Below the pieces are notes generated by a model. That model saw nothing but the letters and a program-made list of their open reading frames with translations, did no database searches and was not told where the DNA came from. Positions 1,868 to 25,688 of a stretch of 50,080 nucleotides of DNA are shown here, piece after piece. Source of the stretch: Geodermatophilus sp. DF01-2 (GTDB lineage Bacteria; Actinomycetota; Actinomycetes; Mycobacteriales; Geodermatophilaceae). Made by a program: the position numbers and the translations under genes. The stretch's first letter is position 1. Every line of letters begins with the position of its first letter. The stretch covers positions 1 to 50,080 of the forward strand of contig NZ_SPQN01000020.1 in assembly GCF_004571065.1 (NCBI RefSeq), written 5' to 3'.

Positions 1868-2569
1868 TCAGCGGCTCGTGGCCGCCAGCGAGGCCGACAG
1901 GGTCAGCCGGTAGGCATCGGGCACCTCGGCCGCCGGGCGACGCGGGGTGGGCATCAGGTCGATCACCATCCGGGTCGGCGCGAAGGCCTCGGCGTAACCG
2001 ATCCGCGCCTGTGCACCCCAGTGCCTCGCCGAGGCCACCACCGCGTCCGGCTCCACCATCGCCGACATCTCCACCTGCGAGGCGTGCGCGCCCAGCGCCG
2101 CCAACTTCCCCGACAGATACGCCGTCACGTCCACGAACGTCGTCGGGGTGAAGGTCAGCGTCGACGGGCTCTGGTAGTGCATGACTCGCGACAGTCGGCG
2201 CGCCGCCGACAACGTCGCCGCCGCCACCGCCCGGTGGTCCTGATGACTGTCCTCCGGTGCATGCACGTACACCACGTCGGCGTCGGTCTCCCGCAGCGCG
2301 CGCTCCACCACCGCGACCGTCGCCGCATCCGGAACGACCGTGCAGTCCCGCAGCCCGCCCCAGAGCAGCCGGGCGCCCAGCGTCCGCGCCGCCTGCTCCT
2401 GCTCGACCCGGCGACCCACGACCGCGGCGTCGTCCCCCGGGCCGTTCTCGCCGCCGGTCATCACGAGCATCGTCACCGCGTCCCCGGCCGCGGCGTGCGC
2501 GAGCAGAGTGGCGCCACACCCCAGCTCGATGTCGTCGGGGTGCGCCCCGACCGCCAGGACCCTACGCAT
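1868..2569 (-). CDS. PIG-L (LmbE/MshB-like) family N-acetylglucosaminyl deacetylase.
   Basis: Translation MRRVLAVGAHPDDIELGCGATLLAHAAAGDAVTMLVMTGGENG...DSHQDHRAVAAATL carries the PIG-L signature (AHPDDE-like block, HxDH). The start was set at the internal Met rather than the ORF-track start at 2752. This Met lies 8 nt before the stop of the upstream gene. Confidence 0.75.
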   Translation of the reverse strand: MRRVLAVGAHPDDIELGCGATLLAHAAAGDAVTMLVMTGGENGPGDDAAVVGRRVEQEQAARTLGARLLWGGLRDCTVVPDAATVAVVERALRETDADVVYVHAPEDSHQDHRAVAAATLSAARRLSRVMHYQSPSTLTFTPTTFVDVTAYLSGKLAALGAHASQVEMSAMVEPDAVVASARHWGAQARIGYAEAFAPTRMVIDLMPTPRRPAAEVPDAYRLTLSASLAATSR

Positions 2570-3125
2570 CGGAGCGGCCCGCCCCAGCCAGCGCACGAGC
2601 CCGCCGGTTCGCCCGGTGCACCAGCACCGCGCCGACCATCCCAGCCGCCACCAGCCCGATCGCCGGCCCGGTCCCGTTGCCCTCCTCCGGCAGCTCCGTC
2701 GACGAGGGGCAGGCCGGGGAGGTGCCGGAGGCGGCCGCGAAGTCGAGGACATAGCCGTCGAGTTCCCACCGCGCCCCCGCGCCGAGCTCGGCCGCGGTCA
2801 CGCGAACCGTGAAGGCGCCGTGCACGGTGCCCGATTCGAAGACGGTCGGCTGCACGCCCTGGAGCCGCGACGGGAACAGGCCGTTCTTCTTGCCGTGCTG
2901 GATGCGCCACCCGTCCCTGGTGTAGCTCGTGTATCCGACGACGAGCGTCCGGGAGCCGTCCTGGTTCTCCACGTGGCAGTCCAGGATCGGCTGCACCTTC
3001 CAGTTGGCCGACGCCGTGCCGGGTGCGGCGAGCAGCCCCACCGCGGCGATGACCGCGACCAGCGCGGCACGGGTGACACGCGCGCCAGCGCGCCGTGCCC
3101 TCGAAGACCTCTTGCGGCCGTCCAT
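2562..3125 (-). CDS. Small secreted protein with a C-terminal tripartite sorting-signal-like tail (candidate exosortase-type substrate).
   Basis: N-terminal signal peptide (RRAGARVTRAALVAVIAAVGLLAAPGTASA), a ~120-aa mature domain with two Cys, then ...ACPSSTELPEEGNGTGP + hydrophobic helix AIGLVAAGMVGAVLV + basic tail HRANRRARALAG. Overlaps the PIG-L start by 8 nt. Confidence 0.6.
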   Translation of the reverse strand: MDGRKRSSRARRAGARVTRAALVAVIAAVGLLAAPGTASANWKVQPILDCHVENQDGSRTLVVGYTSYTRDGWRIQHGKKNGLFPSRLQGVQPTVFESGTVHGAFTVRVTAAELGAGARWELDGYVLDFAAASGTSPACPSSTELPEEGNGTGPAIGLVAAGMVGAVLVHRANRRARALAGAGRSDA

Positions 3126-3234: not shown

Positions 3235-3960
3235 TCATCCCGGAGACAGCGCCGCCGCGTCGGCCCCGAGCAGACCCAGGGCGAGCTCGGCCGCGGCGGG
3301 GAAGGTGTCGGTGACCGCCCAGGCGCGCGGCTCGTCGGGGGCGGTGGCGTACTCGCCCTGCCGGATGCGGACGGCGCGGGCGCCGACGGCGGCCGCCACG
3401 GCGACGTCCTTGCCCGGGCGGTCGCCGATCACCAGCAGCCGGTCGGGCGGCAGTCCCAGCCGCGCGGCGACGGCGACGAGGCCGGTCGGGTGCGGCTTGC
3501 GGACGGCGCGCCCGCCGAGGGCGTCGGTGACGACGACGACCGGCAGCAGGCGCCCCAGGCCGGTCGCGGCCACCTTCGCCGCCTGGATGGCCGGGTTGCC
3601 GTCGGTGAGACAGGCCAGCGGTGCGGCCGCGGCCAGCGCGCACAGCGCCTCCTCGGCGCCCGGGTACGGCGACAGCCGCGGTGGCGTGTGCTGTGTGAAC
3701 GCCGCCACCAGCGGTGGCACCAGGGCGGACAGGGACGACGCCGGCACGCCCACCGCGAGCAGCGCCCGGTCGATCGTGCCCCCGGCGTCCGACCCCGCGG
3801 CGAGCTCCTTCCGCAGCGCGGCGTGCACGGCCGCGCCGTCCAGCCCCGCGTGGCCCGCCGCGACCCCGACCGCGGCAGCGGCGGAGGCGAGGTAGTCGGC
3901 CTGCGGGTAGAGCGTGTCGTCGAGGTCGACGACCACACCCAGCGGCGCGGGTCCCGTCAC
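3235..3960 (-). CDS. HAD-superfamily hydrolase (phosphatase-like).
   Basis: Motif I VVVDLDDTLY and motif IV VIGDRPGKD. The GTG start at 3960 forms a GTGA overlap with the stop of the epimerase gene; the long N-terminal extension in the ORF track is Arg-rich junk. Confidence 0.65.
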   Translation of the reverse strand: MTGPAPLGVVVDLDDTLYPQADYLASAAAAVGVAAGHAGLDGAAVHAALRKELAAGSDAGGTIDRALLAVGVPASSLSALVPPLVAAFTQHTPPRLSPYPGAEEALCALAAAAPLACLTDGNPAIQAAKVAATGLGRLLPVVVVTDALGGRAVRKPHPTGLVAVAARLGLPPDRLLVIGDRPGKDVAVAAAVGARAVRIRQGEYATAPDEPRAWAVTDTFPAAAELALGLLGADAAALSPG

Positions 3961-5138
3961 CACGGCAGCCGACCGTCGGTGAAGTCCGGCTCGTCGAGGG
4001 CCAGCAGAGCGTCGGTGCGCTCGTCGGCGAGGACGGCGGCCACCTGCGGCCCGGTCGTGCCGTCGCCGTACGGGCACGGCGCCGTCGCGGCCCGCTCCTG
4101 CCCCTCCGGGCTGGTGTGCCCGGCCGCGGCGGACAGCACCGCGGCCGCCGCCCGGTCGTCGGCCAGCGAGGCGAGGGTCGTCGTCCCCGCCTCCACCCCC
4201 TCCCAGCGCGGCGTCGAGCCGCGCAGCACCACCACTGGGACGCCGAGGTAGGCGGCCTCCTCCTGGATGCCGCCCGAGTCGGTGACCGCCAACCGCGCCG
4301 TGGCCAGCGCGGCCAGGAGGACGTCGTACGAGACGGGGCCGGTCAGCCTCACGCCCGGGTGCTCCAGCTGCGTACCGAGGCCGGTGTCCGACAGGCGGGC
4401 CGCCGTGCGGGGGTGCACCGGGAAGGTCACCGGCCCCACCTGCTCGGCCAGCGCCCGCACCACGCCGACGAGACGGGCCAGGCGGACCGGGTCGTCGACG
4501 TTGGTCGGCCGGTGCGCGGTGACCAGCACGCCGGACCGCTCGGCGAGCGGCACCCGACGGACGCCACGGGCGACGAGCGTGTCGATGACCGGGTTGCCGA
4601 CGACGAAGACGCGCTCCGCGGCGACCCCCTCGTCGGCCAGGAAGGCCGCGGCGCGCTTGGTCGGCGCGAAGTGCAGCTGGGCGACCGCGGCGGCGACCCG
4701 GCGGTTGACCTCCTCGACGCTGCGCGGGTTGAGGCTGCGCAGCCCGGCCTCGAGGTGGGCGAAGGGCACCCCCGCGGCTCGGGCGGCCAGCGCGTAGGCC
4801 GGCACGGTGTTGGTGTCGCCGAGGGCGAGCACCAGGTCGGGAGCGAACAGGCGGAACGCCCGGAACGCGTCGGCGTGCAGGGCGCCGGTCCGGCCGGCCG
4901 GGTCGGTCGGCAGCCCGAAGCGGTGCCCGGGGACGAGGCCGAGCGCAGCCTGCAGCTGCGCGCCCATCTCCGGGTCGGTGTGCTGGCCGGTGTCGACGAC
5001 GCTCACCCGGTGACCGGCGCTCCGCAGGGCGGCGACGACCGGGGCCAGCTTGACCACCTCGGGCCGGGTGCCGAACGGCACCAGGACGTGCCGGCTGCGG
5101 CTGCCCTGCCCGTTCCGTGACCTCGCGAGCTCGGTCAC
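3957..5138 (-). CDS. wecB: UDP-N-acetylglucosamine 2-epimerase (non-hydrolysing, WecB/MnaA family).
   Basis: HVLVPFGTRPEVVKLAPVVAAL...HLEAGLRS...NPVIDTL is diagnostic of this family. GTG start at 5138 in a GTGA overlap with the upstream stop (5135-5137). 393 aa. Confidence 0.8.
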   Translation of the reverse strand: MTELARSRNGQGSRSRHVLVPFGTRPEVVKLAPVVAALRSAGHRVSVVDTGQHTDPEMGAQLQAALGLVPGHRFGLPTDPAGRTGALHADAFRAFRLFAPDLVLALGDTNTVPAYALAARAAGVPFAHLEAGLRSLNPRSVEEVNRRVAAAVAQLHFAPTKRAAAFLADEGVAAERVFVVGNPVIDTLVARGVRRVPLAERSGVLVTAHRPTNVDDPVRLARLVGVVRALAEQVGPVTFPVHPRTAARLSDTGLGTQLEHPGVRLTGPVSYDVLLAALATARLAVTDSGGIQEEAAYLGVPVVVLRGSTPRWEGVEAGTTTLASLADDRAAAAVLSAAAGHTSPEGQERAATAPCPYGDGTTGPQVAAVLADERTDALLALDEPDFTDGRLPW

Positions 5139-6190
5139 GCGGTCACCGCCGCGGGCGCGCAGGGGTCGACGACGGGGCTGCCGTCGTCGCTGGTGTAGGT
5201 CTCGGCGAAGTAGCGGCTCATCGCCACGCCCGGCCGGAAGGACAGCTCCGGTACCGGGGCGCCACGGACACCGGACAGGTACGCGCCGACGACGTCCGCC
5301 CCGGCCGCGAGCGTGAGCGGCAGGCCTCCGGAGAAGCGCGGATTGATCTCCACGACGGTTGCGGCGCCGTCGTCGGCGACGAAGCCCTGCACGTTGGCCG
5401 GCCCGGTGAGCCCGACGGCGGCCAGCGCCGCGGCGACGACGTCGGTCACCGCCCGGGACTCGAAGGTGCGGCCCTTCACCGAGATCCCGGCCTTGGTCTC
5501 CTCCCGCCACCGCGGCACGGCCGCGCGCAGCGCGCCGTCCCGGTCCACCAGGGCATCGGCGGTGAACTCGCGGCCCGCGAGGCGGGTCTGGGCGATGAGA
5601 CCGGCGTCCTCGCAGAGCGCGGCGACCACCGTGTCCCGGTCGTCGAGCAGCCGGACGCCGCGGCTGCCCCGGCCGGCCAGCGGCTTGACCACCCACGGGC
5701 CGGGGACGCCGGCGACCTCGGCGGCGCAAGTGGCGGTCGCCGGGTGCGGCACGCCGGCGGCCGCCATGGCCCGGGCGAAGGCCGCCTTGTCGCAACACAG
5801 GGCCACCGCGGCCACGGGGGGCAGCCAGGTGGCGACGCCGGCCGCGGTCAGCCGGCCGGCGCCGGCGGCCAGGTACGGCAGCTCCTCGGCGACCGTGCCG
5901 ACCAGCGCGTCGACCCCGGAGTCGGTGCAGACCGCGATGAGCGCGTCGACGAAGCGGGGGTGGTCGCCGCGGGGCACGGTGACGCGCACGTGCGCGAGCG
6001 CTCCCCCGGCGGCGGCGGGATCGGCGTCGGCGGCGACGACCCGGTGGCCGAGGGCGACCAGCCGGCGGACCACCGCCACGCCGGCCGGGCCACCGGCGCC
6101 GGTCACGAGCACGGCGGGACCGTCGGTCGGGTCGGCGAGCGGCGGCGGAGCAGCCGCGGGCGGGCGGGGCTGGGGCAGGGAGGGGGTCAT
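5135..6190 (-). CDS. ATP-grasp domain protein (carboxylate-amine ligase, CPSase-L/PylC-like).
   Basis: 351 aa from MTPSLPQP...; VLVTGAGG...WVVKPLAGRGSRGVRLL...VVEINPRFSGG ATP-grasp blocks. The ATG at 6190 overlaps the upstream stop (ATGA). Confidence 0.65.
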   Translation of the reverse strand: MTPSLPQPRPPAAAPPPLADPTDGPAVLVTGAGGPAGVAVVRRLVALGHRVVAADADPAAAGGALAHVRVTVPRGDHPRFVDALIAVCTDSGVDALVGTVAEELPYLAAGAGRLTAAGVATWLPPVAAVALCCDKAAFARAMAAAGVPHPATATCAAEVAGVPGPWVVKPLAGRGSRGVRLLDDRDTVVAALCEDAGLIAQTRLAGREFTADALVDRDGALRAAVPRWREETKAGISVKGRTFESRAVTDVVAAALAAVGLTGPANVQGFVADDGAATVVEINPRFSGGLPLTLAAGADVVGAYLSGVRGAPVPELSFRPGVAMSRYFAETYTSDDGSPVVDPCAPAAVTA

Positions 6191-7344
6191 CGGTCGTCCT
6201 GGGTCGTCGGGGCGGGGGTGGGGGCGGAGCTGCGCGGCCGGGGGGTCGGCGGTCGGAGGGCGGGGCGGACGGCGGTGGGCGGCAGCCGGTCGGTGGCCGG
6301 CTCGGGCGCCGCGACGGCGGGTCCGGGGGCGGCGTCCCGCTCCGAGCGCTGCAACAGCCAGCCCCGCGCCCACAGCCGCAGGGCGCCCACCCGGTGGTTG
6401 GTCACCGGCTCCCACTGCCGGGCCGCGATCGCCTCGGCGAGGGCATCGAGCACGGCCGGGTCGTCGTCGTAGGTCGCCACCGCCACCAGGGAGGCGGCGT
6501 GTGCGCCCAGCCCGTCGCCGGCCAGCGCCCGGACCCGTGCGGCCCGCTCGACGGGAGGCAGGTGCCCGATCCGGTAGTCGATGCGCCCCGCCTCCCGGCG
6601 CGCCCCCATCCACCGGGAGACCCGGCGCGGGAGCACGTAGCGGTGCATCAGGCCGGCGAGGTTGACCCGACGGGAGACGACGCGCACGTCGCCGTCCGCC
6701 AGCCGGTAGCCCAGGCCGGGCCGCGCCCAGCTGTCGGGACGGCGGGCCGTGTGCCGGCCGGCGACGTCCTGCTCGGCCCGCTCCGCGGTCGGCAGCGTGA
6801 TGCAGACCATGAGCAGGAAGCCGCCGAGGGTGGCCGCCAGGTTCCAGACGGTGCCCACCCAGTCGTGGAAGAGGACCAGCGCGGGGGTGCCCCACACCAG
6901 GCCGGCGACGGTGCTGCCGGCCAGCCGGACGTGGTTGAGCACCAGCAGGGCGGCGACGGCGACGACGAGCCCGGCGACCGCGTGCTGGCGCCGGCCGCGC
7001 AGGACGACGGCGGTCAGCGCGGTGAGACCCAGGACCGACAGGATCGACGAGCAGGACTCGGTGACCTCGGCCAGGATGATCTCGCCGTCGGGGCGGAACA
7101 CCAGGACGTGCCGTTCCAGGGACGCCGACACCGAGTCCACGCCGAGGAACATCAGCACGTTCGCGACCCACCGGGCCTCGTGCACCTGCAGGAACCCGGC
7201 GCCGTATCGGAAGCCGACGGCGCAGATGACCACCGCCAGGCCCAGGTCCAGCAGCACCGGGACGAGGCGCCGGCCACTGCGCCGGGGACGGCGGTACCGG
7301 TGCCGGCCGCGCGGGAGCGGGGCCACGGCGACGGCGGTCGCCAT
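6187..7344 (-). CDS. Polytopic membrane protein with exosortase/archaeosortase-family-like core plus a ~190-aa cytoplasmic C-terminal extension.
   Basis: 385 aa with 6 or more predicted TM helices. The block DGEIILAEVTESCSSILSVLGLTAL resembles the exosortase active-site region (recalled signature ...IEVAE-ACSG-IRSL...). A conserved-looking N..R follows in the next helix (LVLNHVRL). The ATG at 7344 overlaps the GT2 stop by 1 nt. Assignment is by recalled motif only; no search was run. Confidence 0.45.
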   Translation of the reverse strand: MATAVAVAPLPRGRHRYRRPRRSGRRLVPVLLDLGLAVVICAVGFRYGAGFLQVHEARWVANVLMFLGVDSVSASLERHVLVFRPDGEIILAEVTESCSSILSVLGLTALTAVVLRGRRQHAVAGLVVAVAALLVLNHVRLAGSTVAGLVWGTPALVLFHDWVGTVWNLAATLGGFLLMVCITLPTAERAEQDVAGRHTARRPDSWARPGLGYRLADGDVRVVSRRVNLAGLMHRYVLPRRVSRWMGARREAGRIDYRIGHLPPVERAARVRALAGDGLGAHAASLVAVATYDDDPAVLDALAEAIAARQWEPVTNHRVGALRLWARGWLLQRSERDAAPGPAVAAPEPATDRLPPTAVRPALRPPTPRPRSSAPTPAPTTQDDR

Positions 7345-8822
7345 CAGGACGCCGTCCCGGCGGGCGCGACCACCGGCGGGTCCACCGTGACCGTGGACGT
7401 CGCGCCCGACCGGGAGGTCTTCACCCAGGTGTAGGGGCGGCCGAGCATGCCGTCGACGTAGGCGCGGGTGGTGATCCAGATGGACAGCGCGAACGCGGGC
7501 AGGAAGCCGAGCAGCCGCCAGGCGGCCCGCCGCTCCACCCGGCCGATGAGCAGCCCCACGGACAGCTCGGCCAGGGGGCCGACGAAGAGCAGCATCGACA
7601 ACGGCAGCAGCGCGACGATCGGCAGGTCGCCGATGCCGAAGGCGCGCAGCACGGTCAGCAGCAGGCCGATCCCGCTGAGCAGCGGCACGTGGTAGACGAG
7701 CAGGAAGAGCGTCGTCTCGACCTTCTCGACCAGCGACAGGTGCGGGCACCGCATCAGCGGGCGCCAGTAGTCGCGGAAGCACTTCTGGTGGCCCCGGGCC
7801 CAGCGGTACCGCTGCTTCCAGAAGCGCTGGGCGCTGACCACCGCCTCCTCGAAGTCGACGGCGGAGAGGTCGTACCGGACGCGCTGGCCGGCCAGCAGCA
7901 CCCGCAGCGTCAGGTCGGTGTCCTCGGTGACCGTGTGCGGGTTCCACCCGCCGAGCGCGCGGAGCGTGGACATCCGCACCGCGCAGTTGGCCCCGCCGTA
8001 CGCGGGCAGCTCGAACAGCGCCTGCCGGCCGTACTCGTTGACCAGGTAGCCGGAGAGGAAGTCGACGAAGACCGTCGAGGCCATCTGCGAGTCGCGGCCG
8101 TTGCGGATGACGCAGCGCCCCATCACCGCGCCGACGACCGGGTCGCGGAAGTGGCGGACGAGACGGCGCAGCGCCGTCGGCTCCGGCTCGTGGTCGGCAT
8201 CGAAGACCACGGCGACCTCGGCGTCCACCAGGTGGAGGGCGTCGTTGAGCGCGCCGGACTTCCCGCCGCCGGAGCCCGGCGGCCGGTGCAGCACCCGCAG
8301 CCGCGGCTCGCGGGCGGCCCACGCGTCCAGCCGGGCGCCGGTGCTGTCGTCCGAGCCGTCGTCGACGACGACGAGGGTGAGCCGGTCGGCCGGGTAGTCG
8401 AGCGCGAGCAGCGCGGTGACCATCCCGTCGACGACGAGCTCCTCGTTCTTGCAGCCGACGAAGACCGCGACCGTGGGCGTGTAGGTGGACAGCCCGACGT
8501 CGGCGGCCAGCATGTCCCGCTCGGCCCAGCGGGCGGCGGCCACCGCGAACCCGAGGTGCCGGCAGAAGTAGATGCCGAAGACGACGTTGAGCACGCCGGC
8601 GACGACACCGAGGGTCTCGTCGAGACCGTGGAAGAGGGCCACCATGGCGAAGCCGCAGGCGTAGGCGAGCAACACCAGTGGCCGGCCCTCGGGCCGGCCG
8701 GCGTGGGGGTCCCCGGCGGGCGCGCCGCCTCCTGGGGGGACGGCAGCCGGGGGGACGTCGGCCGCAGGCGGGGGCCCGGGGCCGAGCGTCGACGGTCCGC
8801 GGACCACGGCCTCCCCTCCCAC
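7344..8822 (-). CDS. Processive family-2 glycosyltransferase (PgaC/IcaA/NodC/cellulose-synthase-like), membrane-embedded.
   Basis: VVDDGSDDST, DADHEP (D,D,D motifs), TEDTDLTLR and QRYRWARG (QxxRW) followed by C-terminal TM helices. First gene of the operon. The start may be the internal Met (MVALFHG, ~8648) rather than 8822. Confidence 0.75.
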   Translation of the reverse strand: MGGEAVVRGPSTLGPGPPPAADVPPAAVPPGGGAPAGDPHAGRPEGRPLVLLAYACGFAMVALFHGLDETLGVVAGVLNVVFGIYFCRHLGFAVAAARWAERDMLAADVGLSTYTPTVAVFVGCKNEELVVDGMVTALLALDYPADRLTLVVVDDGSDDSTGARLDAWAAREPRLRVLHRPPGSGGGKSGALNDALHLVDAEVAVVFDADHEPEPTALRRLVRHFRDPVVGAVMGRCVIRNGRDSQMASTVFVDFLSGYLVNEYGRQALFELPAYGGANCAVRMSTLRALGGWNPHTVTEDTDLTLRVLLAGQRVRYDLSAVDFEEAVVSAQRFWKQRYRWARGHQKCFRDYWRPLMRCPHLSLVEKVETTLFLLVYHVPLLSGIGLLLTVLRAFGIGDLPIVALLPLSMLLFVGPLAELSVGLLIGRVERRAAWRLLGFLPAFALSIWITTRAYVDGMLGRPYTWVKTSRSGATSTVTVDPPVVAPAGTAS

Positions 8823-9062: not shown

Positions 9063-10673
9063 GTGGGCATGCCGACGCCGGGCAACCGGCCGGAGACACT
9101 CACCGGGCTGCGGTCGGCCGTGGCCCGCGAGGCGGCCGTGGTGGCGCTGCTCACGCTCGTCGTCGCGGTGGCGAGTGGGCTGTGGGACCTGCCCGGACGG
9201 GTCTGGGCCTGGTCGCGGTCGACCGTCGGCCCGCTGGACGACGTCGTCCTGCTGCTGGCCGTCTCGCACCTGTTCATGGTCTTCTTCGGGAAGCGGCGCG
9301 CCGCCGACCTCAAGGCCGAGTGCGTCCGTCGGGAGCAGGCCGAGCGGGACCTGCGCGAGCGAGCGCGCACGGACCCGCTGACCGGCCTGCTCAACCGGGC
9401 CGGACTGGCCGAGGAGCTCGCCGCAGCGGTCGACGACGTGGCCTCCGGCGGCCGGGAACTGGCCGTCGTCATGCTGGACCTCGACCGGTTCAAGGAGGTC
9501 AACGACACCCTGGGACACGCCGTCGGGGACGCGTTGCTGCGCGCCGTCGCCGACCGGCTGGCCGGCGAGCTGCGCCAGGACGACGTGCTCGCGCGGCTGG
9601 GTGGTGACGAGTTCGTGGTGCTGCTCCGCGGCGCCGCCCCCGACGCCGTCCATCGCAGCACCGGCCGGCTGCTCGACGCGCTCCGGCTCCCCTTCGAGGT
9701 CGACGGCCTCGCCCTGGAGGTCGACGGCAGCCTGGGCGTGGCCACCTCCGGTGCCGACCCGGCCGAGCTCCTGCGCGCCGCGGACGTGGCCATGTACGCC
9801 GCCAAGGCCGACCGGCGCGGGGTCGTCGTCCACTCGCCGGAACTGGACCGGCACGACCCGGCCCAGCTGCGCGTCTTCGGCGACCTGCGCCGCGGCATCC
9901 GCGACGGTGAGCTGCGCGTCCACTACCAGCCCAAGGCCGCCCTGCTCGACGGGCAGGTGCGGGGCGTGGAGGCCCTGGTCCGGTGGGAGCACCCGGAGCG
10001 GGGCCTGCTCCCCCCGGCGGAGTTCATCGGCCTGGCCGAGGCCACCGGGCTCATCCGTCCGCTGACCGACGTCGTCCTCGCCCGGGCGCTGGCCGACTGC
10101 CGCCGCTGGCGCGCCGAGGGCCGGGCGCTCACCGTCGCGGTGAACCTGTCCGCCCGGGTCCTGCTCGACACGGCGCTGCCCGAACGGATCGCCGGGCTGT
10201 TGTCCGACCACGACCTGCCGGCGGCCTGCCTGGAGCTGGAGGTCACCGAGAGCGCGGCGATGCAGGACCCCACCCAGGCGCTCGACGTCCTGCACCGGCT
10301 GCGCGCGCTCGGCGTGACGCTGTCCGTGGACGACTACGGCACCGGGCACGCGTCGCTGTCCTACCTGAGCCGCCTGCCGGTCAGCACGCTCAAGATCGAC
10401 CGCTCCTTCGTCTCCACCATGGAACTCGACGACGACGGGCAGGTCATCGTCCGCAGCACCATCGAGCTGGCGCACGCCCTCGGGCTGCGGGTGGTCGCCG
10501 AGGGGGTCGAGACCCGACGGACGTGGGAGCGGCTGGTCGCGTTCGGCTGCGACGAGGCCCAGGGGTACTGGCTGGGCCGGCCGGGTCCGGCCGAGGAGGT
10601 GGTCGCGCAGGTGGCCGCGATCGAGTCCTCGACCACCGGGTCCGGCCCGGCGCCGGCGGCGCTGCGCTCCTGA
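9063..10673 (+). CDS. Membrane-anchored GGDEF-EAL protein (diguanylate cyclase/phosphodiesterase).
   Basis: Two N-terminal TM helices; RLGGDEFVVLL (GGDEF); EAL-domain blocks (YQPKA...EALVRWEHPERGLL, ELEVTESAA, DDYGTGH). RBS GGGAGGA lies before the GTG at 9063 (ATG at 9069 is an alternative). Confidence 0.85.
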   Translation: MGMPTPGNRPETLTGLRSAVAREAAVVALLTLVVAVASGLWDLPGRVWAWSRSTVGPLDDVVLLLAVSHLFMVFFGKRRAADLKAECVRREQAERDLRERARTDPLTGLLNRAGLAEELAAAVDDVASGGRELAVVMLDLDRFKEVNDTLGHAVGDALLRAVADRLAGELRQDDVLARLGGDEFVVLLRGAAPDAVHRSTGRLLDALRLPFEVDGLALEVDGSLGVATSGADPAELLRAADVAMYAAKADRRGVVVHSPELDRHDPAQLRVFGDLRRGIRDGELRVHYQPKAALLDGQVRGVEALVRWEHPERGLLPPAEFIGLAEATGLIRPLTDVVLARALADCRRWRAEGRALTVAVNLSARVLLDTALPERIAGLLSDHDLPAACLELEVTESAAMQDPTQALDVLHRLRALGVTLSVDDYGTGHASLSYLSRLPVSTLKIDRSFVSTMELDDDGQVIVRSTIELAHALGLRVVAEGVETRRTWERLVAFGCDEAQGYWLGRPGPAEEVVAQVAAIESSTTGSGPAPAALRS

Positions 10674-10697: not shown

Positions 10698-11117
10698 TCA
10701 GACCGGAGCGCCGCGGACCGGGACCTCCAGCTCGGCCAGCAGCCCGCGGATCCGGAACCCGATCTCGTCCCGGATGGGGCGCACCGACTCGACGCCCTTG
10801 CCGGCCGGGTCCTCCAGCGCCCAGTCCAGGTAGCGCTTCCCCGGGAGGACCGGGCAGGCGTCACCGCAACCCATGGTGATCACCACGTCGGAGGCCTCGA
10901 CCGCCGCAGGAGTGAGCACCTTCGGCTGCTGGCCGGTGATGTCGATGCCGACCTCGGCCATCGCCTCGACCGCCGCGGGGTTGACCCGGTCGGCGGGCAG
11001 GGAGCCGGCCGAGCGGACCTCGACGGCGTCCCCCGCGAGGGAGCGCAGCCAGCCGGCGGCCATCTGGGAGCGGCCGGCGTTGTGCACGCAGACGAACAGG
11101 ACGCTGGGCTTGCTCAC
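10698..11117 (-). CDS. arsC: Arsenate reductase, low-molecular-weight phosphatase family (ArsC).
   Basis: 139 aa; VLFVCVHNAGRSQMAAGW P-loop and ...DVVITMGCGDACP. GTG start in a GTGA overlap with the acr3 stop. Confidence 0.8.
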   Translation of the reverse strand: MSKPSVLFVCVHNAGRSQMAAGWLRSLAGDAVEVRSAGSLPADRVNPAAVEAMAEVGIDITGQQPKVLTPAAVEASDVVITMGCGDACPVLPGKRYLDWALEDPAGKGVESVRPIRDEIGFRIRGLLAELEVPVRGAPV

Positions 11118-12232
11118 GGAGTGCTCCTGACGGGAACGGTCGGGTCGCCGGGGAAGAAGCGGCGGGCGGCCCACAGGGCCACGTGGACCAGCGCGACCAG
11201 GACCGGCACCTCGATCAGCGGGCCGACGACGCCGGCGAGAGCCTGGCCGCTGGCGACGCCGAAGGTGCCGATGGCCACGGCGATGGCCAGCTCGAAGTTG
11301 TTGCCGGCGGCGGTGAAGGCCAGCGTCGAGGTCTTCGCGTAGCCCAGGCGCAGGCGCATCCCGAGCAGGAACGAGCCGCCGAACACGAGCGCGAAGTAGG
11401 CCAGCAGCGGCAGCGCGATCCGGACGACGTCCCAGGGCCGCGAGGTGATCGTCTCGCCCTGCAGCGCGAAGAGCACCACGATCGTGAACAGCAGGCCGTG
11501 GAGGGCGATCGGCCCGATCCTGGGCAGGAATCGGCTCTCGTACCAGGCACGGCCCCCCGTGCGCTCCCCGACCGTGCGGGTGAGGAAGCCGGCGAGCAGC
11601 GGGATGCCCAGGAAGACCAGGACCGAGAGCACGATCGCCCCGACGCTGAACTCGGCCGACGTCGTCGGCAGGCCGAGCCAACCGGGCAGCACCTGGAGGT
11701 AGAACCAGCCCAGCGCCGCGAAGGCGGCGATCTGGAAGACCGAGTTGATCGCGACCAGCACCGCGGCGGCCTCCCGGTCGCCGCAGGACAGGTCGTTCCA
11801 GACGAGGACCATGGCGATGCACCGGGCCAGGCCGACGATGATCAGCCCGGTGCGGTACTCGGGCAGGTCGGGCAACAGCAGCCAGGCCAGGGCGAACATC
11901 AGCGCCGGGCCGACCACCCAGTTGAGCACCAGGCTGGCGACCAGCAGCCTCCGGTCACCGGTCACCCGGCCCAGCTCGGAGTACCGGACCTTCGCCAGCA
12001 CCGGGTACATCATCAGCAGCAGGCCGACGGCGATCGGCAGGCTGACGTTGCCGACCTCGACCGCGGACAGGACGTCGCCCAGGGCGGGGACCCAGCGGCC
12101 CAGCGCCAGGCCGAGCGCCATCGCGGCGACGATCCAGACCGGCAGGAAGCGGTCCAGGGTCGACAGCCGCGCGAGGACCGGCGTCTCGACGTCGGTGGCC
12201 GGGCGTGGGGTCTCGGCGACGGTGTCGCTCAT
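11114..12232 (-). CDS. acr3: Arsenite efflux transporter, ACR3 family.
   Basis: 372 aa, ~10 TM helices, with characteristic ACR3 blocks (LLMMYPVLAKV, VLNWVVGP, TAAGNNFELAIAVAI). Confidence 0.85.
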   Translation of the reverse strand: MSDTVAETPRPATDVETPVLARLSTLDRFLPVWIVAAMALGLALGRWVPALGDVLSAVEVGNVSLPIAVGLLLMMYPVLAKVRYSELGRVTGDRRLLVASLVLNWVVGPALMFALAWLLLPDLPEYRTGLIIVGLARCIAMVLVWNDLSCGDREAAAVLVAINSVFQIAAFAALGWFYLQVLPGWLGLPTTSAEFSVGAIVLSVLVFLGIPLLAGFLTRTVGERTGGRAWYESRFLPRIGPIALHGLLFTIVVLFALQGETITSRPWDVVRIALPLLAYFALVFGGSFLLGMRLRLGYAKTSTLAFTAAGNNFELAIAVAIGTFGVASGQALAGVVGPLIEVPVLVALVHVALWAARRFFPGDPTVPVRSTP

Positions 12233-12344
12233 GGGACGGCACGGTCCTTCCGGACGGGGGAGCTCGGGCGGGCATCGACCCGCATCGATCCCTCAGCCTG
12301 CCCGGCGCATCGACGCCCGTCAATCTCGTCGGCATACTGGTCCC

Positions 12345-12719
12345 GTGAGCGTCGACGCCACTCCCCCGCCGGCCGCCGTCTGCTGCGCCCCGCTGGTTCG
12401 CCGTCCACTCTCGACCGAGGAGGCCACCGACCTCTCCCGGCTGCTCAAGGCGATCGCCGACCCCGCCCGGCTGCGGCTGCTCTCCCTGGTCGCCGCCCAC
12501 ACCGGCGGCGAGGCCTGTGCCTGCGACCTCACCGAGCCGCTCGGCCTGTCCCAGCCGACGGTGTCGCACCACCTCAAGGTGCTCGTGGACGCCGGGCTGC
12601 TCACCCGGGACAAGCGCGGCGTCTGGGCGTACTACGCGCTCGTCCCGGGGGCCCTCGACGCCTTGGCCGGGGTGCTCAGCACCGCCGACGCCGGGAGCCT
12701 GCCCCCGTCCGCCTGCTGA
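12345..12719 (+). CDS. arsR: ArsR/SmtB-family metalloregulator.
   Basis: 124 aa from the GTG at 12345. LLKAIADPARLRLLSLV...CACDL...LSQPTVSHHLKVLVDAGL (HTH and metal-binding Cys). Divergent from acr3-arsC. Confidence 0.8.
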   Translation: MSVDATPPPAAVCCAPLVRRPLSTEEATDLSRLLKAIADPARLRLLSLVAAHTGGEACACDLTEPLGLSQPTVSHHLKVLVDAGLLTRDKRGVWAYYALVPGALDALAGVLSTADAGSLPPSAC

Positions 12720-19307: not shown

Positions 19308-19380
19308 AGCTTCAGGGTGGGCCCCCGGGGGATCGAACCCCGAACCCGCTGATTAAAAGTCAGCTGCTCTGCCGGTTGAG
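19308..19380 (-). tRNA. tRNA-Lys (anticodon TTT).
   Basis: Hand-folded cloverleaf: acceptor GGGCCTC/GGGGCCC (one G-U pair), D-stem GCTC/GAGC, anticodon stem GCTGA/TCAGC with loop CTTTTAA, T-arm CGGGG-TTCGATC-CCCCG, discriminator A. Confidence 0.85.
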
Positions 19381-19754
19381 CTAGAGGCCCCGTGTCAGGC
19401 CGAGGCTACCCGGGTGACCGCCGCCGCTCAGATGACGTCGAACAGCAGCAGGACCAGCAGGGTCAGCAGCGCGGAGATGGCCAGCGAGCCGAGACAGCCG
19501 AGCCGGTTGGAGAAGAAGAAGAACACGAGCGCGGCAGTGCCCCGACGGATCGCCGGCGAACCCGAACCTCACGGTCCGTGCTCTTCACCACGGCGTTTCA
19601 CCTGCTCAGGTGATGACTGGAGACCCTCAAGTCACCTACCGTCGCGTCCGCCCGGTTGCCGCAGACCCCGGGCGCGCGCCCCGAGCGGCGCCCCCAGGCC
19701 CCGGCCCGGTCGTCGCGTTCCCCCCGTGACGGCCGGGCCGGACCCATCCCCGGA

Positions 19755-25430: not shown

Positions 25431-25503
25431 GCCCCCATCGTCTAGCGGTCCAGGACGCCGCCCTTTCAAGGCGGTAGCACGGGTTCGAACCCCGTTGGGG
25501 GCA
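25431..25503 (+). tRNA. tRNA-Glu (anticodon TTC).
   Basis: GCCCCCATCGTCTAGCGGT... with anticodon loop CTTTCAA and T-arm ACGGG-TTCGAAC-CCCGT. Confidence 0.85.
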
Positions 25504-25517
25504 CAGCACCACAGCAA

Positions 25518-25591
25518 GGCCCTGTAGCGCAGTTGGTTAGCGCGCCGCCCTGTCACGGCGGAGGTCGCGGGTTCGAGTCCCGTCAGGGTCG
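25518..25591 (+). tRNA. tRNA-Asp (anticodon GTC).
   Basis: GGCCCTGTAGCGCAGTTGGTTAGCGCG... with anticodon loop CTGTCAC and T-arm GCGGG-TTCGAGT-CCCGT. Confidence 0.85.
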
Positions 25592-25614
25592 CTCTCCGGT
25601 GGAGACACCGGGAG

Positions 25615-25688
25615 GGGCAGGTAGCTCAGTCGGTACGAGCGCTCGCCTGAAAAGCGAGAGGTCGGCGGTTCGACCCCGCCCCTGCCCA
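25615..25688 (+). tRNA. tRNA-Phe (anticodon GAA).
   Basis: GGGCAGGTAGCTCAGTCGGTACGAGCG... with anticodon loop CTGAAAA and T-arm GGCGG-TTCGACC-CCGCC. Confidence 0.85.

Follow-up and report, generated by a model that had tools for sequence, protein, structure and literature searches.

In this study, we analyzed a 50,080-nt stretch of DNA from Geodermatophilus sp. DF01-2 (contig NZ_SPQN01000020.1; hereafter the window), centered on a gene for a 187-amino-acid (aa) protein (2562..3125, minus strand) and on an exosortase-like (Xrt-like) gene lying ahead of it on the same strand (6187..7344). Our analyses suggested that the small protein is probably a dedicated cargo that the Xrt-like enzyme would attach to the cell surface, and that its last ∼45 residues form a new kind of tripartite sorting signal. 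The two appear to constitute a new exosortase/sorting-signal pair, for which we infer cleavage and an acceptor from sequence comparison. The initial annotation of this DNA had already named the protein as a candidate exosortase substrate, a proposal that gained support from the conservation of the tail and from gene linkage followed in both directions. It had also placed the two genes in one operon, in agreement with our results, at a distance of 4 kb, which is too long: the gap is 3.06 kb (4.2 kb from start to start).

The cargo open reading frame (ORF) is real. It begins with ATG, has GAGGA 8-12 nt ahead of the start, and shows a GC content at third codon positions of 0.915, with 0.92-0.98 in the neighboring genes; a Geodermatophilus sp. 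DF01-2 entry annotated as "hypothetical protein" matches its product with 100% identity. The protein consists of a signal peptide, an immunoglobulin-like (Ig-like) domain with two Cys, an LPxxGNGxG motif, a transmembrane (TM) helix and an Arg cluster, all encoded on the minus strand. Residues 1-40 (3006..3125) were called by eye, from sequence and hydropathy, as a Sec-type signal peptide, with Arg in a basic n-region, the hydrophobic h-region AALVAVIAAVGLLAAPG and a putative cleavage site ...PGTASA|N, in which PGTASA is conserved. A Tat signal was rejected, likewise by eye, as R-R precedes AGAR and not hydrophobic residues. The mature beta-sandwich domain (residues 41-139; 2709..3005) is ∼100 aa long, shorter than the ∼120 aa first estimated, and lies between the two Cys noted at that time, the invariant C50 and C139, which are probably joined by a disulfide. 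It is followed by the signature region P140-P154 PSSTELPEEGNGTGP (2664..2708; core L145-G153 at 2667..2693), where the string ELPEEGNGTGP stands ahead of the 15-residue hydrophobic TM segment A155-V169 AIGLVAAGMVGAVLV (2619..2663), and then by the basic cluster H170-R177 (HRANRRAR; 2595..2618), where R171 is invariant and R175 is kept in 111 of 116 sequences; 10 more residues come after it. Kyte-Doolittle analysis gave only two peaks in the whole protein, at residues 22-32 and 160-165, and the AF2 model built with 120 homologues contained a confident beta-sandwich (residues 44-140), a low-confidence linker (144-158) and a helix (160-181). Thus the Sec signal peptide, ELPEEG motif, 15-residue helix and basic cluster described initially could all be read directly from the sequence, in agreement with the hydropathy peaks; the accompanying statement that the tail contains no TG was literally wrong, as it reads G-N-G-T152-G153.

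Conservation is concentrated in the tail. A total of 125 cargo homologues were found at E≤0.001, distributed among Geodermatophilus, Modestobacter and metagenomes. In the alignment of 120 sequences, the segment 137-155 carried 3.62 bits per column, followed by the TM segment (3.32), the basic cluster (3.15) and the mature domain (2.54). Six motif residues were nearly fixed, namely L145 (118/120), P146 (119/120), G149 (117/120), N150 (119/120), G151 (120/120) and G153 (118/120). Variable positions were 147 (E in 88, A in 26), 148 (E in 85, Q in 17, D in 13) and 152, where 16 of the sequences have L or A in place of the Thr of the window cargo. The tail signature is, as read from these alignments, [LM]-P-x-x-G-N-G-x-G, located six residues past the domain-closing Cys, with L/M, P, G, N, G and G fixed; a TM helix and then R-x-x-R-R complete it. 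Among 86 small representatives, 69 possessed the tail, and their consensus was [L46/M20]-P68-[A/G/E]-[D24/E20/T8]-G60-N66-G64-[T/A/L]-G61; the motif started six residues past the closing Cys in 58 of the 69. With the tail kept in more than 120 homologues, the pattern is far from chance. In all 17 pairwise comparisons, six of them between tandem paralogues, identity in the tail exceeded that in the mature domain (for example, 0.81 and 0.37). The codons of the motif varied synonymously (Pro as CCG 17 times and CCC 16 times; Gly as GGC, GGG or GGT) under an unchanged peptide, which indicates that selection acts on the motif peptide and speaks against a nucleotide-level element as the cause of the conservation. 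We also rejected the conserved "DA-stop" end of the cargo as a signal component: it is accounted for by the overlapping start codon of the downstream PIG-L gene, GATGCGTAG (window 2562-2569), and genomes without this overlap lack it. As a separate observation, E148-T152 (EGNGT; window 2676-2690, minus strand) fits the bacterial D/E-x-N-x-S/T sequon, with Thr replaced in ∼13% of homologues.

The tail matched no known signal. The cargo protein had no Pfam or NCBIfam (release 20) match, the isolated tail had no NCBIfam match at E up to 10, and a word-index search with the tail only returned two fragments and nothing else. No TIGR02595-type (PEP-CTERM) match was found at E up to 10 and P-E-E was not conserved; the initially drawn analogy of PEE standing in place of PEP proved superficial, positions 3-4 of the motif varying among A/E/G and D/E/Q/T/I/L, respectively. 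The same annotation had excluded an LPXTG/LAXTG signal. This held in so far as no LPXTG model matched and Thr at position 4 was not conserved, being outside the top three residues at position 148 among the 120 homologues and present in 8 of the 69 representatives; those eight (∼12%), as well as the variant cargo P0313 (LPATG), literally read [LM]PxTG, so that the sortase alternative is weakened and not excluded by sequence. In Geodermatophilaceae, the TM sequence itself was well conserved, including A161, G162 and G165. In Pilimelia and in distant cassettes, the TM segment kept only its hydrophobic character and the basic end read RRRR, RRR or RNRR. Because these distant cassettes hold the motif while the TM sequence changes, the tail behaves like a removable signal rather than a specific helix-helix contact.

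The second line of evidence is the linkage of cargo and enzyme across genomes. The pair lies in a cassette of seven genes in the window, and all 20 loci with enough flanking sequence, which represent 19 distinct genomes and include Pilimelia, had the complete set. The initial annotation had raised two ways in which its proposal could fail, loss of the tail in orthologues and tail-bearing orthologues lacking the enzyme; instead, the tail was conserved above the rest of the protein out to Pilimelia, and every locus with enough flank held the exosortase-like gene together with the other six. The genes outside the cassette differed from genome to genome, and the cassette is therefore mobile or, at the least, autonomous. 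When 185,579 species genomes were scanned with the exact motif LP[EA][EQD]GNG[TL]GP, 28 matches were obtained. Sixteen of them encoded cargo relatives, at one locus per genome, in 14 Geodermatophilaceae and two Pilimelia (Micromonosporaceae); the 12 matches outside the family were set aside, about 10 being expected by chance from a rough estimate based on amino acid frequencies. A genome-wide family of cargos, as first expected, was not found in this exact-motif scan, and the signal was confined to one or two paralogues in the cassette. In Pilimelia, which belongs to another order, the gene order was permuted (cargo, PIG-L, GT2, Xrt-like fused to ATP-grasp, WecB, HAD) and the cargo mature domain was only 32-35% identical, and the tail still read SLPADGNGTGP followed by a TM segment and RRRR.

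Linkage was recovered from the side of the enzyme as well. The Xrt-like protein had 231 homologues in a wider range of hosts, including Blastococcus and Trujillonella, and four of four such genomes possessed a small tail-bearing ORF in the cargo slot (LPADGNGLG, LPAIGNGTG, LPADGNGTG). An enzyme-seeded scan of metagenomes collected 38 contigs, seven of which reached the cargo slot, and all seven had an ORF with the tail, down to 40% identity in the Xrt core; the motif drifted in metagenomic contigs to VPADGNGAG, QMAMGSNG and KPVPQVGD. Three of four variant cargos on short contigs (P0338, P0313 and P0252) occupied the same slot between HAD and PIG-L, and the slot variants included proteins with two repeats, with a discoidin domain plus a repeat, and with the literal LPATG. 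P0337, whose tail is of the PVPIVSD type, was an exception: its 6.8-kb contig lacks the cassette. Each cassette contained one or two cargo genes, all sharing the same last domain. Eight loci (L008, L009, L011, L013, L015, L016, L018 and L064) carried two tandem paralogues, both of which kept the tail; their mature domains were 37-52% identical and their tails near-identical. One of the copies in G. chilensis (L011) looks truncated at its N-terminus.

The proposed processing enzyme is a 385-aa membrane protein of the exosortase family, which matched TIGR04178 with 34.8 bits (cutoff 23) over residues 93-179 and PF09721 with 26.4 bits (cutoff 25.7). No named subtype from XrtA to XrtY fits: XrtS scored 30.4 against 145 and XrtR 23.6 against 150, and no other subtype was listed. 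C98 (in SCS), N137 and R140 (NxxRL) and H160 (FHDW) were invariant in 50 Xrt-like homologues and in Pilimelia. Cys, Arg and His make up the putative catalytic triad of the exosortase/archaeosortase family (Haft, 2023; 10.1101/2023.06.07.544157), and C98, R140 and H160 match this triad by their motif context and their place in the region matched by TIGR04178. The AF2 model showed helices at residues 24-66, 98-114, 119-151 and 153-183, a small sheet (72-93) and, well predicted, a helical domain (229-337). It is compatible with a predicted topology in which the N-terminus is inside, four TM segments follow, C98, R140 and H160 lie at the outer face and the C-terminal domain is cytoplasmic. The cytoplasmic placement agrees with the in-frame fusion to an ATP-requiring ligase that was observed in both Pilimelia (L022 12575-∼15000 and L023 12596-∼15000) and in Geodermatophilus sp. 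DSM 44513, where Xrt-like and ATP-grasp were called as a single 742-aa product (L002 5703-7931). Such fusions tie the putative transpeptidase to the ligase by a link of the Rosetta-stone type. The cytoplasmic domain (residues ∼190-337; window 6187-6760, minus strand) was 56-61% identical between Geodermatophilus and Pilimelia, compared with 42-43% in the Xrt core, and followed the pattern ERAEQD..GRHTA.RP..WARPGLGYR ... AARQWEPVT ... LRLWAR.W. The domain was without a family or fold match, and the whole protein had neither a sequence relative in the PDB nor a fold neighbor. The NCBI annotation pipeline (PGAP) named the enzyme at family level only and the cargo a "hypothetical protein"; the family of the enzyme is thus already recognized by automated annotation.

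Haft listed eight attributes of tripartite C-terminal sorting signals (10.1101/2023.06.07.544157, section 5), and we compared the cargo tail with each. First, as to position, the motif begins 43 residues before the C-terminus and 10 residues follow the basic cluster, with the same placement in the homologues. Second, many copies per genome were not seen, the window containing one copy and each cassette at most two tandem paralogues, with the genome-wide search covering the exact motif only. Third, a conserved motif was present in the 120 homologues and in the 50%-identity representatives. The fourth and fifth, a TM segment and 2-5 basic residues, were recognized from the hydropathy peak at 160-165, the helix at 160-181, the invariant R171 and the conserved R174 and R175, and the sixth, an N-terminal signal peptide, by eye. 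Seventh, unrelated carriers were absent among the top 150 profile matches, in which all carriers share the Ig-like module. Eighth, homologues without the signal or with a different C-terminus numbered in the thousands. For dedicated systems the same author offered an alternative, in which an enzyme and target regularly encoded nearby replace the multi-copy and unrelated-carrier criteria (10.1101/2023.06.07.544157, section 5). Enzyme and cargo were encoded nearby in both search directions (20/20 loci, 7/7 contigs fetched with the Xrt-like enzyme, 3/4 variant cargos), and on this account the system appears to fit the dedicated kind and not the many-cargo kind.

Several points weigh against this interpretation. 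The signal was seen on one domain family only, and a "family C-terminal region" is then not formally separable from a "sorting signal". The Xrt core is short and barely above the Pfam and signature cutoffs. The conservation of A161, G162 and G165 in the TM segment of Geodermatophilaceae could reflect a helix-helix contact that persists. The characterized PEP-CTERM systems are Gram-negative, whereas this host is a Gram-positive actinobacterium. Finally, the tail-bearing P0281 lies on a 4-kb contig with no adjoining cassette gene.

If the protein is indeed the cargo of the Xrt-like enzyme, it would be exported by Sec and lose residues 1-40 to signal peptidase, after which the Ig-like domain would fold outside the cell with a C50-C139 disulfide. 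The C-terminal helix and the Arg cluster would retain it in the membrane, leaving the flexible LPxxGNGxG at the outer face, where Cys98, Arg140 and His160 of the enzyme are also predicted to lie. The enzyme may then cut within or next to the motif, removing the helix, and pass the C-terminus so created to an acceptor, a transfer that has been proposed for other enzymes of the exosortase/archaeosortase family. The most economical acceptor would be the product of the GT2, WecB, PIG-L, ATP-grasp and HAD enzymes, possibly an amine-bearing amino-sugar glycan or glycolipid. A set of glycosyltransferase, phosphatase, PIG-L protein and ATP-dependent ligase resembles, in its logic, the assembly of mycothiol and bacillithiol, and could unmask or introduce an amine on an amino sugar. 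In its most specific and tentative form, which we regard as unlikely as it stands, this scheme would be a bacterial counterpart of glycosylphosphatidylinositol (GPI)-type anchoring, in which the five enzymes build a membrane-linked amino-sugar glycan or glycolipid whose amine is free or aminoacylated, and the Xrt-like enzyme cuts the LPxxG|NG region and joins the C-terminus to the amine.

The main alternative, which owes its weight to the restriction of the signal to one domain family, is that the cargo is never cleaved, and instead is a single-pass membrane protein acting as an extracytoplasmic accessory, for example in glycan binding or chain handling, of a GT2/Xrt-like complex. The motif and the small-residue TM segment would then be docking elements, and the Xrt-like protein would have another role or substrate. 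We consider this possible, though clearly the less probable account. It draws on the one or two cargo copies per cassette with an unchanging last domain, on the invariance of A161, G162 and G165 within Geodermatophilaceae, and on the carbohydrate-binding modules (F5/8 type C and AbfB) of some cargos; exosortases are also accompanied by non-substrate partners such as EpsI. However, an EpsI-type exosortase accessory was rejected, as no EpsI model matched and the cargo showed no similarity to it; Pilimelia and the distant cassettes keep the extracytoplasmic motif and not the TM sequence; and the motif falls in a linker predicted to be disordered. In addition, a protease-type enzyme with intact Cys, Arg and His is strictly co-inherited with the cargo, and the cassette holds no other tripartite secreted protein.

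A further explanation, improbable in our view and compatible with cleavage, is that E-G-N-G-T is a glycosylation or priming site, with the cassette glycan built on Asn150 and the cargo acting as a membrane-anchored primer or carrier. The near-invariant N150 and G151, the E, Q or D at position 148 and the dominance of sugar enzymes in the cassette are in line with it. Nevertheless, T152 gives way to L or A in 16 of 120 homologues and several cassette cargos read GNGLG, GNGAG or GNGIG, distant variants have D for N (VPQVGD), and the cassette lacks an oligosaccharyltransferase. Very improbable, lastly, is a degenerate LPXTG-type signal for a housekeeping (class E-like) sortase encoded elsewhere, with the linkage to the Xrt-like gene coincidental to the polysaccharide function: the L-P-x-x-G spacing, TM helix and basic tail follow the sortase format and a minority of cargos literally read [LM]PxTG, but position 4 is mostly acidic (D/E in 44 of the 69 representatives and T in 8; E 85, Q 17 and D 13 among the 120 close relatives), Asn-Gly (N150 and G151), irrelevant to sortases, is what is most conserved, NCBIfam LPXTG models gave no match at E up to 10, and the LPATG variant still sits inside the cassette; the known sortase motifs, moreover, all but require the Thr.

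The mature domain belongs to a far larger family than the tail. When 1.84 billion representatives were searched exhaustively with a profile, 4,361 proteins that share it were recovered at E≤0.001, many of which hold 2-12 tandem copies of a ∼95-aa module in proteins of up to 4,112 aa; this two-Cys beta-sandwich module has no Pfam or NCBIfam model. In the multi-repeat relatives the same Cys pair brackets every internal repeat, which assigns C50 and C139 to the domain and not to the signal. The invariant C139 was accordingly rejected as a signal Cys of the MYXO-CTERM or JDVT-CTERM kind, being the closing Cys of an Ig-like repeat, and because it is intrinsic to the repeat domain, the tail is set apart from the Cys-containing signals of Haft (2023). 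The tail was also found on other architectures, including two-repeat proteins and a single repeat preceded by a discoidin (F5/8 type C) domain, by AbfB or by a low-complexity linker; the upstream payload varies, and the last Ig-like repeat plus the tail were constant in every carrier seen. Thousands of multi-repeat homologues, large surface-type proteins, have other C-termini, such as DUF11 followed by ...PxFTG, or lack a TM segment.

Two side observations concern other C-termini in this family. Ten giant relatives (P0245, P0250, P0253, P0254, P0266, P0272, P0294, P0326, P0359 and P0362) possess a common N-terminal module, ICHATGNG...H..H..DIIPPF, together with DUF11, and stop exactly at P-x-[FY]-T-G (PPFTG, PSFTG, PNYTG, PTYTG and the like), with no TM segment or basic tail after it. 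These ends are either an LPXTG-like motif at the extreme C-terminus or the product of ORFs shortened at a recoded stop. A second flavor of tail, ST[KN]PVP[QI]V[GS]D followed by a TM segment and an R-rich end, stands behind the same domain at L064 ∼4200-4732 and in P0337 (L029); in L064 it lies in a distant cassette beside a QMAMGSNG-type paralogue.

The seven genes in the window run on the minus strand in the order GT2, Xrt-like, ATP-grasp, WecB, HAD, cargo and PIG-L. The first encodes a PgaC/IcaA-like family 2 glycosyltransferase (GT2; 7344..8822), assigned by Pfam and NCBIfam matches, whose stop overlaps the Xrt-like start by 1 nt and which is weakly similar to exosortase-linked glycosyltransferases (NF053846, 89 bits, cutoff 520; TIGR03111, 47 bits, cutoff 364). 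The Xrt-like stop in turn overlaps, within ATGA, an ATP-grasp ligase (5135..6190), followed by the UDP-N-acetylglucosamine 2-epimerase WecB (3957..5138; TIGR00236, 235 bits against an equivalog cutoff of 210) and a HAD-family phosphatase (3235..3960), the ligase and the phosphatase being recognized by model matches. The last gene encodes a PIG-L family de-N-acetylase, closest to BshB1/MshB (1868..2569), and its ATG overlaps the cargo stop. In order, the junctions are overlaps of 1, 4, 4 and 4 nt, a 109-nt gap before the cargo gene, and an overlap of 8 nt between cargo and PIG-L. The cassette contained no sortase or myxosortase-type gene and, besides the cargo genes, no second secreted tripartite protein; Rfam showed no riboswitch or other RNA near it. 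A GGDEF-EAL gene lies divergently beside GT2, both in the window (9063-10673, plus strand, with GGDEF and EVTE literal) and in Geodermatophilus sp. DSM 44513 (L002 2445-4034). Its position hints at control of the cassette by cyclic diguanylate; the gene is absent from some genomes. Farther along the window, we recognized by eye an arsenic-resistance cluster (10698-12719) with a low-molecular-weight-phosphatase-type ArsC, an ACR3-like permease (11114-12232, minus strand) and an ArsR-like regulator (plus strand), as well as three tandem tRNA genes (25431-25688, plus strand) and an isolated one (19318-19390, minus strand).

In the literature searched, we found no description of the signal, the cargo family, the cytoplasmic domain of the enzyme or the seven-gene cassette, and the first three have no Pfam or NCBIfam release 20 model. 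Exosortases are widespread, it is not known to what the bacterial ones attach their cargo, and most systems are difficult to work with, as each enzyme handles dozens of cargos dispersed through the genome. In the present case, a single enzyme is inherited as a 7-kb unit with one or two cargos and five enzymes that are candidates for building the acceptor. The hosts (Geodermatophilus, Modestobacter, Blastococcus and Pilimelia) are Gram-positive, stress-tolerant actinobacteria that can be cultivated, and with so compact a cassette, cleavage, cleavage site and acceptor are directly testable. The pair would extend exosortase-type sorting to single-membrane (monoderm) Actinomycetota, would give genome annotation a new signal and enzyme in place of a "hypothetical protein" and a generic family name, and suggests that an LPXTG-like motif was taken over by an unrelated enzyme family. 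If the GPI-type scheme were true, it would define chemically, for the first time, what an enzyme of the exosortase family uses as its acceptor, and the cassette is small enough to be reconstituted.

Among known systems, PEP-CTERM/exosortase (XrtA/EpsH) shares with the Geodermatophilus pair a tripartite signal on a Sec-exported protein, a TIGR04178 enzyme with Cys, Arg and His, and a polysaccharide locus with a glycosyltransferase. It differs in the motif, which is [LM]PxxGNGxG and not PEP in Geodermatophilus, and in the number of substrates, the cassette enzyme serving one or two cargos of its own operon and PEP-CTERM systems dozens scattered over the genome. The cassette enzyme is moreover a short four-TM core with a unique cytoplasmic domain, sometimes fused to ATP-grasp. 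The dedicated systems of Haft likewise have a single target near the enzyme, but NCBIfam release 20 contains no model for the present enzyme subtype or signal. The pairs XrtG with TIGR03111 and XrtP with NF053846 resemble the cassette in that an exosortase-family gene directly adjoins a PgaC-like GT2; the Xrt-like protein matches neither, and its operon includes a cargo with a clear signal.

The LPXTG/sortase system is similar in its L-P-x-x-G, spacer, TM segment and basic tail, in its surface Ig-like cargos in Gram-positive hosts and in the minority of LPxTG sequences; in contrast, here Thr is not conserved and the Asn-Gly after the Gly is, the cassette has no sortase, and the fold of the linked enzyme is unrelated. 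The best mechanistic precedent is PGF-CTERM/archaeosortase A, which belongs to the same enzyme superfamily and is the sole case where helix removal and attachment of a membrane anchor were demonstrated experimentally (Haft, 2023; 10.1101/2023.06.07.544157). Unlike the cargo tail, PGF-CTERM is archaeal, has its motif at the start of the helix, receives a prenyl-derived lipid anchor and serves many cargos. With GPI anchoring there is an analogy in the small-residue N-G-x-G before a C-terminal hydrophobic segment, in a Cys-type, transamidase-like enzyme and in a PIG-L-family de-N-acetylase; apart from the PIG-L family, the enzymes are non-homologous, and the cargo differs in possessing a basic cytoplasmic cluster.

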